DNA of 64,000 nt from Chitinophagaceae bacterium (GTDB lineage: Bacteria; Bacteroidota; Bacteroidia; Chitinophagales; Chitinophagaceae). The stretch lies in contig JANYCA010000144.1 of assembly GCA_025360525.1 (NCBI GenBank), positions 12,071 through 76,070 on the forward strand, given 5' to 3'. Numbering within the stretch: the stretch's first letter is position 1; each line of letters starts with the position of its first letter. The notes beneath the pieces are model-generated. The model saw nothing but the letters and a program-made list of their open reading frames with translations, did not search any database and was not told the origin of the DNA. Made by a program: the position numbers and the translations under genes. Shown here one piece after another: positions 15,284 through 43,600 of this stretch.

Positions 15284-15832
15284 ATGATTTTTCAGGCTTG
15301 CGATATAATACGAACAGAATTGATAGCCGGGGGTGTTCCCAGCGAGTTGGGAAATATTGGGGAAATATTAGCCGGTAATAATCATGGGCAAGATAACAAC
15401 ATTATAATTTCTCTTATAAATATTGAAGAAAACAGGATTTCAAGAGATCCGCAGAATTATGTAAGAAATGGAACAGATATTTTAATGAAAAACCCTGCAG
15501 TTCATTTAAATCTAACCCTGCTTTTTACTTCGGTAAGAGAAGTAGGAGGCTATGGATTGGCATTGCAAAGTATACAGCAAACCATTGGATTTTTTCAAAA
15601 GAAGTATGTATTTGATCATGCCAATACTCCCTTGCTAGATGCCGGTATTGATAAATTGATTTTAGAAATGATCAGTTTTAATATGGAACAATTGCAGCAG
15701 CTATGGTCTATGCTGGGTGGTAAATATCATCCTTCGGTGGCTTATCGCATCAGGATGATTACTGTAGATAGTGTGACCAGTACTGATGGCCCGGTAATAA
15801 AAGAGATAGAAGCTATTCATCATTTAAAATAA
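15284..15832 (+). CDS. eCIS cap/tail-terminator protein, DUF4255 (Afp16/Pvc16-like)
   Basis: ISLINIEE, LNLTLLF, QTIGFFQ, QLWSMLGGKYHPSVAYRIRM motifs; first gene of the cluster. Confidence 0.88.
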   Translation: MIFQACDIIRTELIAGGVPSELGNIGEILAGNNHGQDNNIIISLINIEENRISRDPQNYVRNGTDILMKNPAVHLNLTLLFTSVREVGGYGLALQSIQQTIGFFQKKYVFDHANTPLLDAGIDKLILEMISFNMEQLQQLWSMLGGKYHPSVAYRIRMITVDSVTSTDGPVIKEIEAIHHLK

Positions 15833-15839
15833 TTATTGG

Positions 15840-16562
15840 GTGGATTCAATAAAAACGATATACACAGAGTTGTTTAATGTAAAACTTGAACATAAGGCGT
15901 ATTCGTCTGCAAAGGGCAATAGTATATTTAATGAATTACAAGTGGGTCCGGATGAAAATACAATGGCTTTATTTAAACGCTACGAAATGGATTACCGCTG
16001 TATTGACAATATGATTGTTTGCTTTATAAGAAGTGATCTTTTATCGCCACCTTTAAAAGAACCTAAAAAATCGTACGTGCTTTTAGTTGAAGCCTTTAAG
16101 GTGAGATTTTTACTAAAAGTTACCAGGGGGTTTTTAGATAAAACACAGGTGGCATCAACGGGTGTTAAAACAGTTTATTACTTTACTAACAAGATAAATA
16201 ATGTACAAAGCAGTAACAAGTACATTACCAAAGTAATTGAAACATTTAATGCTGCCAACAGCTATGATGCTGGCACCATTGTAAATAGTGCAGGTGCATC
16301 TTTTGCAGCTTTGCAACCAATAAAAAGTGTTGATTCGATAGCGATAAACAATACAGCTTTCTGGAAAAAACTATTACCGGTTGAGCAGGTGGTAAATAAC
16401 GCAGACTTACAGGATATAGCTGCAGTAAACCCATCGGAAAATTGCTTTGCGGTGGTAGACATTTTTAATACCGGCACTATAAATACCACCTATAATTTAT
16501 TTGGCAGTAGCCTTCAGCTGCTTAGCCCATTATATACCATTCCATTTAAAAGCAAAATATAA
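15840..16562 (+). CDS. eCIS-associated hypothetical protein (position of the AlgoCIS cap adaptor), with a CBM5/12-like insert
   Basis: Sits between DUF4255 and the sheath; internal FNAANSYDAGTIV..GASFAALQ..NTAFW segment. Confidence 0.55.
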   Translation: MDSIKTIYTELFNVKLEHKAYSSAKGNSIFNELQVGPDENTMALFKRYEMDYRCIDNMIVCFIRSDLLSPPLKEPKKSYVLLVEAFKVRFLLKVTRGFLDKTQVASTGVKTVYYFTNKINNVQSSNKYITKVIETFNAANSYDAGTIVNSAGASFAALQPIKSVDSIAINNTAFWKKLLPVEQVVNNADLQDIAAVNPSENCFAVVDIFNTGTINTTYNLFGSSLQLLSPLYTIPFKSKI

Positions 16563-16594
16563 ATTTGATCACATCATCATTAAACTATTAAAAA

Positions 16595-41219: not shown

Positions 41220-42156
41220 AATAATAGTCACAAAAAACTATACTATGCAACGCTATTCAACAAAAAAGAAAACAAGTAAGTACAGTTCTAATACCAGCAC
41301 CCATACCTTCTTCCAGGGGCAGGGCCACGATGCAGACCTGGAGCAAACTGTGGCCAAAGCTCCCACTACAACCGCACTACTACTTACCGATGCACAGGTA
41401 ACCAGTGCAAGGGCTTTTATGCGCAACAATTATGCACCCGAAAGCATTGAATTATTGAGAAGCAGGTTTGGCCTTTCGGATGGCCGGCAGGTAGATAGGG
41501 AACTGGTTTTAGCAGTAGCACAATACCAGGATACGAATGATCTTACTGTTGATGGAAAATTAGGCGAAACTACATTCAATACTATACAGGCAGAAGGTGG
41601 GGAAGTAATGCAGGATGTAATTATGTTTAGCGTTATGAGCCCTGTCAGTGGCAGGATGGTGGTGAATGGTGGTCCCGGTATTACCAGTTTTTCCGGTCAG
41701 TTTATTATTGAAATACATTTTCCTCCGGGAGAAGATTGCAGTAAATATGAATACCGCCAGTTTATTTGTGGCCGGGTAGAAATGTTGCCAACCGGCGCAG
41801 ACCCTGCCGGACCCATGACCGACTTACGCAGCCTGTTTACCGTGCCCGGAGGGCTTCAGCCCATACCCAATTATACACAAGATGGCAATTCAGGACTAAC
41901 ACCCCAACGAATGGGACATAGAAGTGGTCCGGGAAGTTCAAGCCCACTGAATCATTATGTAAATGCAGATGGTTCAGAAAACCAGCGGAATGGTTGTATT
42001 TTCCGTGGAGAAGATTTCCCGGCCATTACAGGCCGCATTACAAACACCGGCGAGCAATACGAATTTGACTTTAGGTTTGTGGGACAAATTGTTCATAAAG
42101 ACCGGGGCGTTATTGCAAGAAAATTCTGGAGTGTACGAGAAGATTTTTTAATTTAA
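41212..42156 (+). CDS. Peptidoglycan-binding-domain protein, candidate second cargo
   Basis: LAVAQYQDTNDLTVDGKLGETT resembles PG_binding_1; start overlaps the cargo stop (alternative ATG at 41245). Confidence 0.7.
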   Translation: MSKIIVTKNYTMQRYSTKKKTSKYSSNTSTHTFFQGQGHDADLEQTVAKAPTTTALLLTDAQVTSARAFMRNNYAPESIELLRSRFGLSDGRQVDRELVLAVAQYQDTNDLTVDGKLGETTFNTIQAEGGEVMQDVIMFSVMSPVSGRMVVNGGPGITSFSGQFIIEIHFPPGEDCSKYEYRQFICGRVEMLPTGADPAGPMTDLRSLFTVPGGLQPIPNYTQDGNSGLTPQRMGHRSGPGSSSPLNHYVNADGSENQRNGCIFRGEDFPAITGRITNTGEQYEFDFRFVGQIVHKDRGVIARKFWSVREDFLI

Positions 42157-42280
42157 ATCTTATAACTCAAGATTTTTCGACATTGATTTTTTGAGGTTCC
42201 AATTATCATTATTACACTGCCGATGCAATGGAAATGGTAACCAGTAAAAGATATTTTAAAGCAGGAAATTATTAACCAAT

Positions 42281-43600
42281 ATGCCACCAACCATCATGCC
42301 ATCCGATGAAACATTCACAAGGTTCAGCAACTATGTTAACAATAGGCTGCAATTACATTTTGCTGCAAACGGCGAACAGGTTCCGTTAGGGGAATTACCC
42401 GAAATTGACAGCACTGCATTCAAAGGTAAAAAGTTAAATCACTATGAAACGATTATCCTGCTTACTGCATTGTCGGCTCATGTTCAGCCGACGCTGTTTG
42501 AAAATGCCATTCAACAAAATATGCCTAAGGGCGGCGAGTTTCCGGAATTTGGTGGAGTGAAGGGTACTAATACCAGATACATGTTGCCTACCGGTGATAC
42601 GGCACTTTTTTTATTGGCTGGAACCGATACGGATAAACGCAAACAAGTACTTCGGTATTTTGATGCTTCGCATTGGTTTTGGACAGATTTTGTGCTGTGG
42701 CTGGAGCATGTAAAAGAAGGTGAGCCACGTATGAGCGGTAAGCTTATTTTACACCAGGAGTATGTAGATTTACTTACTACCGGCATGGTTGCAAAGCCAG
42801 CATTTAGCCCGGAATTTCCAGCCAAACTGGTTACCACAAAAATGGAATGGCAAGATGTTATTTTGGCGGCCAAAACAGCCACGCAAATAGACGACATCAA
42901 AATCTGGTTACATCATAACAGAACTTTTTTACAAACCTGGGGAATGGAAAAAAGAATTAAACCCGGGTTCCGGGCCTTGTTTTACGGACCTCCCGGCACA
43001 GGAAAAACTTTAACCGCCACGCTACTGGGTAAGCAATTTGAAAAAAATGTTTATCGCATCGATCTGTCGCAGGTTGTATCCAAGTATATCGGCGAAACAG
43101 AAAAAAATCTGGAGAAAATTTTTATGAGGGCAGAGAACAAAAACTGGATATTGTTTTTTGATGAAGCAGACGCCTTGTTTGGCAAGCGGAGCAATGTGCA
43201 GAATGCACACGACAAATATGCCAACCAGGAAGTAAGTTACCTGCTGCAACGGGTAGAAGATTTTCCGGGTTTGGTGATTTTGGCTTCTAATTATAAAAGC
43301 AATATCGACCAGGCATTTATCCGAAGGTTCAATAGCATTATTCATTTCCCCATGCCCAACCAGGCAGAGCGATACGCCATATGGAAAGCCGCCATACCAC
43401 CCAAAGCCACGCTGGCAAACGATGTTGACCTGGCGACTATTGCTGCAAAATATGAACTTAGTGGTTCTGCCATTGTGAGTGTAATTCATTATGCTTCTCT
43501 GCAAACTATTTACCAACACAGCACCTGCATTTCGAAACCAGACATACTGGAAGGCATAAAAAGAGAATTTGAAAAAGAAGAAAGGGTCTTTAATGGATAA
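42281..43600 (+). CDS. eCIS AAA+ ATPase (Afp15/Pvc15-like)
   Basis: LFYGPPGTGKT, VVSKYIGETEKNL, LFFDEADALFGKRS, YANQEVSYLLQR. Confidence 0.95.
   Translation: MPPTIMPSDETFTRFSNYVNNRLQLHFAANGEQVPLGELPEIDSTAFKGKKLNHYETIILLTALSAHVQPTLFENAIQQNMPKGGEFPEFGGVKGTNTRYMLPTGDTALFLLAGTDTDKRKQVLRYFDASHWFWTDFVLWLEHVKEGEPRMSGKLILHQEYVDLLTTGMVAKPAFSPEFPAKLVTTKMEWQDVILAAKTATQIDDIKIWLHHNRTFLQTWGMEKRIKPGFRALFYGPPGTGKTLTATLLGKQFEKNVYRIDLSQVVSKYIGETEKNLEKIFMRAENKNWILFFDEADALFGKRSNVQNAHDKYANQEVSYLLQRVEDFPGLVILASNYKSNIDQAFIRRFNSIIHFPMPNQAERYAIWKAAIPPKATLANDVDLATIAAKYELSGSAIVSVIHYASLQTIYQHSTCISKPDILEGIKREFEKEERVFNG

Follow-up and report, generated by a model that had tools for sequence, protein, structure and literature searches.

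The contractile injection system (CIS) AlgoCIS from Algoriphagus machipongonensis PR1 (clade Ib; PDB 7ADZ/7AEB/7AEF/9WT0) was introduced by Xu et al. (PMC8894135) with a cap adaptor, a plug, a long Afp11 and a fibre. In Anabaena sp. PCC 7120, the thylakoid-anchored CIS (tCIS; PDB 7B5H/7B5I) is held in the thylakoid membrane by Cis13 together with an extension of Cis12 (amino acids (aa) 610-1100); Cis13 is a small fibre-like protein with a transmembrane helix that is encoded between cis11 and cis12 (Weiss et al., PMC8894136). Afp from Serratia entomophila (6RAO) and PVC from Photorhabdus (6J0N) belong to clade Ia. These machines were compared with a locus from a Chitinophagaceae bacterium (assembly GCA_025360525.1), situated at positions 15284-43600 of a 64,000-nucleotide stretch (12071-76070) of contig JANYCA010000144.1 that is referred to as the window. 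The locus probably is one operon that builds an AlgoCIS-type extracellular CIS (eCIS), with a free, released particle as the most likely form.

By inspection of the open reading frames (ORFs), the operon consists of 17 contiguous and intact CIS genes, all on the + strand, with intergenic gaps of -8 to +124 nt. Zero internal stops or frameshifts were found over its 28.3 kb, including the long ORFs of 1036-2204 aa. Stop and start codons overlap by 1 nt at 19218, 22594 and 33081, and further gene overlaps measure 7 nt at 26283, 8 nt at 29386 and 8 nt at 41212. A first-pass annotation of this DNA had described a complete, lesion-free eCIS-group gene set with a single sheath on one strand and with the three 1-nt overlaps. 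This description held: each listed gene lay in its place with an open frame, the overlaps were real and internal stops were absent. Every gene could be identified using Pfam, NCBIfam and the PDB sequence library. The system is the sole CIS of the genome: the 4.89-Mb assembly of 207 contigs has a single sheath gene and a single pair of tube genes. The source is an uncultured assembly resembling a metagenome-assembled genome (MAG).

Structural genes compared with AlgoCIS, tCIS and Afp/PVC

The contractile sheath (473 aa; 16595-18016; Pfam Phage_sheath_1/1C) matched the tCIS sheath All3325 over its full length with an E-value of 1e-156, followed by AlgoCIS with 2e-141 and by PVC/Afp with 1e-70 to 1e-40. 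It is a minimal form close in size to the tCIS sheath (484 aa) and is without the additional domain present in the AlgoCIS sheath of 692 aa. The operon opens with a cap or tail terminator of the Afp16 N-domain type, similar to Alg16A (182 aa; 15284-15832; Pvc16_N 1.2e-29), which is kept upstream of the sheath gene in ∼70 of 80 related loci. Between cap and sheath, a gene (240 aa; 15840-16562) had been correctly located in the first pass; its label, hypothetical, is replaced here by cap adaptor (Alg16B/Cis16B homologue), in a short form covering the N-terminal Ig-like domain. The assignment came from a profile of 12 short ORFs from the conserved cap-sheath slot, including more distant slot-mates. 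It matched the AlgoCIS cap adaptor 7adz_1A with 5e-29, in residues 1-214 alone of 284, and to a lower extent tCIS All3326 (1e-19) and SalCis16b (4e-3). As a single sequence, the protein reached just E 0.29 to All3326.

The inner tube protein (Afp1-like, 143 aa; 18113-18544; Phage_T4_gp19 2e-49) is followed by a second tube-fold protein (Afp5-like, 164 aa; 18547-19041; Phage_T4_gp19 7.4e-36) and by the plug (Afp6/Alg6, 55 aa; 19051-19218; DUF5908 1.8e-16). In the PDB, the plug matched the ‘inner protein’ of Algo6, 7aef_t, with 1.2e-4 and tCIS Asl3322 with 0.012, both at full length. The tape measure (Afp14/Alg14, 494 aa; 33081-34565) was covered in full by CIS_TMP (8.5e-104) and is similar in size to that of AlgoCIS (526 aa). 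With the AlgoCIS coefficient of 0.229 nm per residue (bioRxiv 10.64898/2026.05.27.728243), a particle of ∼113 nm is predicted.

In the baseplate, the tube initiator (Afp7-like, 234 aa; 19218-19922; CIS_tube 1.3e-49) carries a 64-aa C-terminal extension where Alg7 has a LysM domain; the LysM-like match of this extension was not significant (E 0.14). The spike (VgrG/Afp8, 597 aa; 19935-21728; Phage_base_V 4.8e-22, Phage_GPD 5e-05), its PAAR tip (Afp10, 96 aa; 21803-22093; PAAR_motif 9.3e-28) and the gp25-like wedge (Afp9, 138 aa; 22178-22594; GPW_gp25 1.7e-26) are encoded next. Afp11/Alg11/Cis11 (1231 aa; 22594-26289) was weakly recognised as Baseplate_J-like by Pfam and clearly by the PDB search, where tCIS All3317, also of 1231 aa, scored best (8e-155), followed by Alg11 (5e-133), Pvc11 (1e-36) and Afp11 (1e-28). 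It has a long N-terminal extension. In tblastn, residues 9-1224 aligned to a Calothrix homologue and residues 234-1231 to an Algoriphagus homologue. By analogy with AlgoCIS and tCIS, the extension may form the spike cage. Afp12/Alg12/Cis12 (1036 aa; 26283-29393) matched All3315 with 8e-130 and Alg12 with 4e-125. It contains a lineage-specific insertion of ∼130 residues (residues ∼176-305; window 26808-27200) that is unmatched in both and gave no Pfam match.

The last structural gene before the tape measure codes for a protein of 1231 aa (29386-33081) that had been called Afp13-like. It is not an Afp13 homologue, and the label was dropped in favour of a tail fibre or ‘crown’ of the Alg19/Cis19 type: residues 4-530 matched residues 9-520 of the AlgoCIS PKD-domain protein 9wt0_a with 9e-77, and tCIS All3314 followed with 7e-71. 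A conserved shoulder (TssK-like) and neck at ∼1-530 precede ∼700 divergent C-terminal residues with one PKD domain at 972-1032 (PKD_4 1.7e-06). In AlgoCIS, the Alg19 fibre binds bacterial cells (bioRxiv 10.1101/2025.10.08.681156).

As contractile phage tails likewise contain a sheath, tube, gp25, baseplate J, VgrG and PAAR, the locus could also be taken for a prophage tail module or for a cargo-less R-type tailocin that kills by depolarisation. The contractile tail core is indeed present by Pfam and PDB matches (sheath, tube, gp25, baseplate J-like Afp11, Afp12 and VgrG spike), but it is accompanied by parts specific to the eCIS group, namely, the Pvc16_N cap, the CIS_TMP tape measure, the DUF5908 plug, an eCIS_core cargo and the Afp15 AAA+ ATPase. 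By Pfam annotation of the larger ORFs in the window, no capsid, portal, terminase, integrase or lysis cassette was found within 14 kb upstream and 20 kb downstream, and no type VI secretion system (T6SS) membrane-complex gene in the locus, as the first pass had stated for capsid, terminase and T6SS membrane genes. Phage T4 and pyocin sheaths matched with 1e-6 to 1e-4, compared with 1e-156 for tCIS. The phage or tailocin explanation is thus effectively refuted.

Among the described systems, AlgoCIS shares the gene order, the single sheath, the short cap with a separate cap adaptor, the plug, the long Afp11 (cage), an Alg12 without the tCIS connector, the Alg19-type fibre with its conserved shoulder and neck and the lack of membrane anchors. 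Its operon also ends with an AAA+ ATPase, and its cargo has the same build of N-terminal region, DUF4157 and C-terminal domain. It differs in its longer sheath and cap adaptor (284 aa), in its shorter Afp11 (1050 vs 1231 aa), in an Afp12 without the insertion and in its cargo, which is distinct and much smaller (498 and 1228 aa compared with 2204 aa). A 303-aa protein resembling peptidoglycan (PG)-binding domains, encoded before the ATPase here, had no convincing homologue in an Algoriphagus genome with an AlgoCIS-like locus. The tCIS gave the best scores for sheath, Cis11 and Cis12 and likewise has a Cis19 crown or fibre, a cap adaptor and a plug. It differs by its Cis13 gene, its Cis12 extension, its cargo genes and a host with thylakoids. 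The resemblance to AlgoCIS, proposed earlier, was borne out by the cap adaptor, plug, long Afp11, Alg12, Alg19 shoulder and DUF4157 cargo, with tCIS scoring slightly better.

Afp and PVC share the parts list Afp1, 5-12 and 14-16 and the AAA+ ATPase, and they set a precedent for a very large toxin loaded into the lumen. Unlike the present system, they use three paralogous sheath proteins, their fibres are of the Afp13 type and fold back on the sheath, and their cap has two domains and no adaptor; they possess neither cage nor Alg19, their cargo lacks DUF4157 and their sequence matches are much weaker (1e-70 to 1e-26). Judged by its genes, the operon is a real, complete and apparently functional CIS of the AlgoCIS/tCIS branch, an already studied kind.

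Kinship, anchoring and probable mode of release

To collect sheath relatives, the contigs of one genome for each species were scanned with an alignment of sheaths as query, which gave at least ∼600 matches; the same scan with the tape measure as sole query gave none. Among the matches listed, the closest sheaths came from MAGs of Chitinophagaceae (84% identity) and Segetibacter sp. (83%), in agreement with the Chitinophagaceae-like genome that the first pass had suggested, and the next ones from one MAG each of Ignavibacteriaceae (71%) and Chitinophagales (67%). At ∼50-57% identity, sheaths were spread across Bacteroidota, Geobacteraceae, cyanobacteria, Pseudomonadota and others. In G033, the closest relative, the sheath is 95% identical; its contig breaks off within the operon, and its assembly contains neither the tape measure nor the cargo. 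The gene order from cap to Afp12 is kept in nearly all of 80 related loci. Within the own genus, 15 of 36 genomes have a sheath, and these are spread over different clades, which is the usual pattern of horizontally transferred systems.

A maximum-likelihood tree of the sheaths was calculated with Algoriphagus and Calothrix sequences as proxies for AlgoCIS and tCIS. The window clustered with its closest sequences (SH-aLRT 100%). The tCIS-like Calothrix sequence fell into the same large group (SH-aLRT 93), and the Algoriphagus long-sheath group into the other basal half, with a weak split between the halves (SH-aLRT 65). In the PDB ranking for sheath, Cis11 and Cis12, tCIS came first with AlgoCIS close behind, the Salmonella salamae CIS next and PVC/Afp far weaker. 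Together, ranking and proxy tree point to a placement in clade Ib. This clade of eCIS was reportedly defined by Chen et al. in 2019.

The kinship to tCIS raises the question whether the machine stays in its producer and fires on stress, death or contact, like the thylakoid-anchored tCIS, the cytoplasmic Streptomyces CIS or the Amoebophilus T6SS subtype iv. The tCIS proteins are its best-scoring solved homologues, the sheath is short as in tCIS, the Calothrix sheath groups with the window and the Algoriphagus long-sheath group lies outside. The locus contains no lysis genes, and several modes of action occur among related systems of clade Ib (PMC8894135). However, both features that anchor tCIS (PMC8894136) are absent. 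No Cis13-type gene lies between Afp11 and Afp12, and as these two genes overlap by 7 nt, there is no room for such an anchor gene. The Cis12 membrane-connector extension is missing as well: residues 752-866 of Afp12 (∼114 residues) bridge All3315 620-1158, and the corresponding part of Alg12 (594-731) comprises 137 residues. None of the structural proteins has a predicted transmembrane segment, the operon encodes no membrane protein (a hydrophobic segment was detected inside the cargo alone) and the host, not being a cyanobacterium, has no thylakoids. Moreover, the operon encodes a complete fibre of the Alg19 type with an adhesin-like, divergent C-terminus, and the AlgoCIS fibre binds target cells from outside. 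An intracellular or cell-bound machine, though a real rival, is therefore considered unlikely, and the absence of both tCIS anchor features makes a free, released particle the likeliest mode.

A holin-like transmembrane protein was not found in the locus, and neither was an endolysin, in agreement with the first-pass annotation; a 314-aa protein resembles PG_binding_1 and has no lytic fold. In two relatives, lytic enzymes are linked to the locus. In a Flavobacteriaceae contig (NZMG01000012.1; L118 11257-15986), a 273-aa protein with PG_binding_1 and N-acetylmuramidase domains is encoded directly upstream of the ATPase. It has neither signal nor leader and is a candidate release lysin. The same locus also encodes a patatin-like protein of 861 aa. 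In another relative, a PG_binding_1 and M15 peptidase gene lies 5 kb downstream. Loci of this type are thus occasionally accompanied by lytic enzymes, but the present one is not.

Cargo candidates and their proposed loading

The largest gene of the operon (34605-41219) codes for a giant cargo toxin candidate of 2204 aa (∼242 kDa) with Pfam matches to eCIS_core (2.2e-28) and Ntox4 (1.2e-06). A polar N-terminal region (1-191) is followed by DUF4157 (eCIS_core; 192-267) with an intact HELTH (HExxH) motif and ∼1900 more residues. In Cgo1 and Cgo2 of AlgoCIS, the N-terminal region and DUF4157 form the ‘loading’ part (bioRxiv 10.64898/2026.05.27.728243). Among 60 related genomes, the N-terminal ∼280 aa alone found matches, often several per locus; these residues correspond to the loading part. 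The remainder is exchanged, a pattern that cargo would be expected to show.

In other Bacteroidota, homologues over the full length occur (2100-2200 aa, 50-62% identity), and one of them closes the eCIS locus of Marinigracilibium pacificum. Another homologue is an orphan (L108 10001-16489): it is 62% identical over its full length, the 10 kb to its left and right are free of CIS genes and it is neighboured by TPR/MORN and Fic genes. A comparison of 16 homologues revealed a mosaic. The block at ∼280-1285 is present in all and contains a strongly hydrophobic Gly-zipper-like segment (1104-1138); a helical block at ∼1290-1780 is missing in some and is followed by a separate block at 1790-1990. The C-terminal domain at 1991-2164 is replaced by PT-HINT and another domain in one relative.

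This C-terminal domain carries the Ntox4 match (PF15541), which covers residues 2053-2139 with 29.2 bits at a gathering cutoff of 25. Its conserved residues are H2058, H2066, E2067 and N2080. Zhang et al. 2012 (PMC3482391) defined Ntox4 as a toxin domain that occurs in proteins with a PVC-metallopeptidase, for which they predicted export by a PVC-type system and listed no immunity protein. The present cargo resembles these toxins in its C-terminal Ntox4 on a DUF4157 protein and differs in that the two domains are set apart by ∼1700 aa of conserved, unassigned sequence including the Gly-zipper-like segment. The whole cargo gave no match in the PDB with phmmer. Residues 1281-2204 were modelled with AlphaFold (pLDDT 70), and a Foldseek search with this model yielded no significant match in the PDB either; its best repeated matches were beta-beta-alpha-metal nucleases of the EndoG/EXOG type, which were not significant (E 0.27-1.5). 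The EndoG-like resemblance fits the conserved H2058, H2066-E2067 and N2080, but it proves nothing.

Two other ideas about the giant cargo were set aside. A nucleotidyltransferase around the motif SSDIDL (aa 1426-1431) was not supported, as no nucleotidyltransferase was among the Foldseek matches and the third acidic motif is missing. A foreign origin, suggested by the GC content of 0.47 compared with ∼0.38, is rejected, as the GC content at third codon positions (GC3) of 0.38 is within the range of operon and housekeeping genes. The high GC content is therefore attributed to amino-acid composition and not to foreign codon usage.

The second cargo candidate is encoded by an ORF of 314 aa (41212-42156), or 303 aa from Met12 at 41245. 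Its homologues, of 303-306 aa, begin at the position corresponding to Met12. The Pfam match to PG_binding_1 was weak (2.7e-4). In the AlphaFold2 model (pLDDT 80), a disordered part (1-49) precedes a PG_binding_1-like helical domain (60-135) and a beta-sandwich (138-313). Foldseek searches of the PDB and BFVD gave a PG_binding_1-like match in BFVD with a probability of 1.0 over 60 columns, and neither a lytic fold nor an informative structural neighbour. In three other eCIS loci, a homologue of the 303-aa protein lies directly upstream of the ATPase, whatever precedes: DUF4157 and PT-HINT genes in one, a different 2100-aa cargo in another and nothing after the tape measure in the third. The eCIS locus at L110 8520-12255 has no DUF4157 gene between tape measure and ATPase, and the 304-aa homologue is the only cargo candidate there.

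An exhaustive HMMER search of 1.84 billion representatives gave 1225 relatives of the 303-aa module, of which 72 reached E≤1e-30. Among these 72 strongest relatives, there are 41 in which the module is the C-terminal domain right behind DUF4157, and the same holds for 39 of the 42 with at least 400 aa. As it is mostly fused behind DUF4157, the PG-binding/beta-sandwich module appears to be a common eCIS cargo domain. The simplest reading of the 303-aa protein is a second cargo from which DUF4157 has been lost, a domain dispensable for loading in AlgoCIS (bioRxiv 10.64898/2026.05.27.728243).

Three further roles or features of this protein were considered and set aside. It is not the immunity protein for Ntox4, as it adjoins the ATPase whatever the cargo, even without a DUF4157 gene; moreover, its homologue is absent beside two Ntox4-bearing homologues and the module itself is fused to DUF4157 elsewhere. 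A role as endolysin was not supported, as the Foldseek searches gave no lytic-enzyme match for the beta-sandwich. A loading leader shared by both cargo candidates was not supported by BLASTP (E 1.4), and the evidence from a common FFQ[GP][QK] motif is weak: in its strict form, it occurs in these two alone among the N-termini of the genome's ORFs, with ∼0.5 matches expected by chance. Alternatively, it could be what is left of the C-terminus of DUF4157 (THVVQQ).

The operon ends with an AAA+ ATPase (Afp15/Alg15, 439 aa; 42281-43600; Pfam AAA 2.3e-29) with intact Walker A (GPPGTGKT) and Walker B (FFDEAD) motifs. Alg15 acts in cargo loading of AlgoCIS (bioRxiv 10.64898/2026.05.27.728243), and by analogy the ATPase would be the cargo loader. 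The last ∼60 nt of its gene (43540-43600) recur in degenerate form 7.4 kb downstream (50940-51000) with a 19-nt identical core and ∼80% identity over ∼60 nt. The two repeats flank a decayed AMP-binding/MBOAT cassette, which suggests an insertion of the cassette at the operon end or a recombination with it.

Genomic context, target and significance

The operon is preceded by housekeeping genes (FtsH, RsfS, PheS, M23 peptidase, S13 carboxypeptidase and a beta-lactamase-fold protein). A LytTR-domain DNA-binding protein (14312-14929, + strand; LytTR 4.2e-07) is encoded 354 nt upstream and probably is a dedicated regulator that switches the operon on. Terminator-like hairpins on the + strand were not found in the first 8 kb scanned. 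In a scan for sigma-70 promoters and terminators, sites were no more frequent than in shuffled sequences; such a scan is unsuited to Bacteroidota promoters.

Downstream, the adjoining genes are broken: an AMP-binding enzyme is in three ORFs (44547-48717), an MBOAT gene is truncated (49712-50437) and a GH3 glycosidase is divided between a pair of overlapping ORFs (51005-53153). They are followed by an ice-binding-like protein of 909 aa (53926-56655; Pfam 3.5e-52), whose GC3 of 0.147 compared with 0.30-0.44 in every other gene measured points either to a highly unusual codon usage or to a foreign gene of recent arrival.

With these pseudogenised neighbours and the patchy distribution of sheaths in the genus over different clades, the locus might be a silent or decaying relic, acquired horizontally by a genome that is losing genes nearby. 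This is regarded as highly improbable in view of the 28.3 kb without stops or frameshifts, the intact catalytic and nucleotide-binding motifs and the upstream regulator gene. The GC3 of each operon gene is also within the host range, so that the operon does not look like a recent, unadapted arrival. A 28-kb operon without a lesion next to broken genes rather suggests that it is under selection.

For the released, AlgoCIS-type particle, the following course of events is proposed. The LytTR protein would turn on the operon; gp25, Afp11, Afp12, VgrG, PAAR, plug and Afp7 would form a caged baseplate, as judged from homology to solved machines, from which trimers of the Alg19-type fibre would hang. 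Tube and single sheath would polymerise to a length of ∼113 nm set by the 494-aa tape measure and be closed by cap and cap adaptor. In analogy to AlgoCIS, the AAA+ ATPase would thread unfolded cargo into the tube lumen by way of the disordered N-terminus of the cargo. The main cargo would be the 2204-aa DUF4157 protein with the C-terminal Ntox4 as likely warhead, possibly a nuclease, and the 303-aa protein with its PG-binding-like domain and beta-sandwich would be a second, smaller cargo. Particles would float free in the cytoplasm until a fraction of the cells lyses. Once released, they would attach to a target by the fibre's variable C-terminal region, contract and eject their cargo.

The PG-binding cargo and the binding of AlgoCIS fibres to bacteria tilt the guess about the target slightly towards bacteria. 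More tentatively, and with considerable doubt, the PG-binding/beta-sandwich could be seen as a widespread, undescribed eCIS effector module that has become a fixed ‘core cargo’ without DUF4157 in this sub-clade. If it acted on peptidoglycan, the entire branch of AlgoCIS/tCIS-like machines would be aimed at bacteria, and the giant cargo would then cross the inner membrane by its Gly-zipper and deliver an Ntox4 nuclease.

Several observations weigh against the proposed released and toxin-loaded particle. No immunity gene follows the toxin, which is odd for a bacterial target, and the locus has no holin or endolysin, its PG-binding protein being without a recognisable lytic fold. The top-scoring match is tCIS, a cell-anchored system. 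The warhead activity is putative, with the EndoG-type Foldseek matches at E 0.27-1.5. Loading of the 303-aa protein is an assumption, as it has neither DUF4157 nor a long N-terminal region, and the BLASTP comparison of its N-terminus with the big cargo (E 1.4) was not significant. Finally, the host is uncultured and represented by a MAG-like assembly.

These findings leave the current view of contractile injection systems unchanged. They add the identification of all genes formerly listed as unknown, the absence of the tCIS anchors despite tCIS-like scores, the Afp12 insertion, the recurrent cargo module and the mosaic cargo family. With the operon, the AlgoCIS/tCIS branch gains a clean example without lesions from bacteria resembling Chitinophagaceae. 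Its combination of a tCIS-like minimal sheath with an AlgoCIS-like unanchored baseplate helps to part features linked to anchoring from those linked to phylogeny. The PG-binding/beta-sandwich module as a recurrent cargo domain gives a testable hint of bacterial targets for many such systems, and the 2100-2200-aa proteins form a family of mosaic cargo with exchangeable C-terminal toxins. Cargo and fibre modules of this kind are now exploited in re-engineering AlgoCIS for protein delivery.

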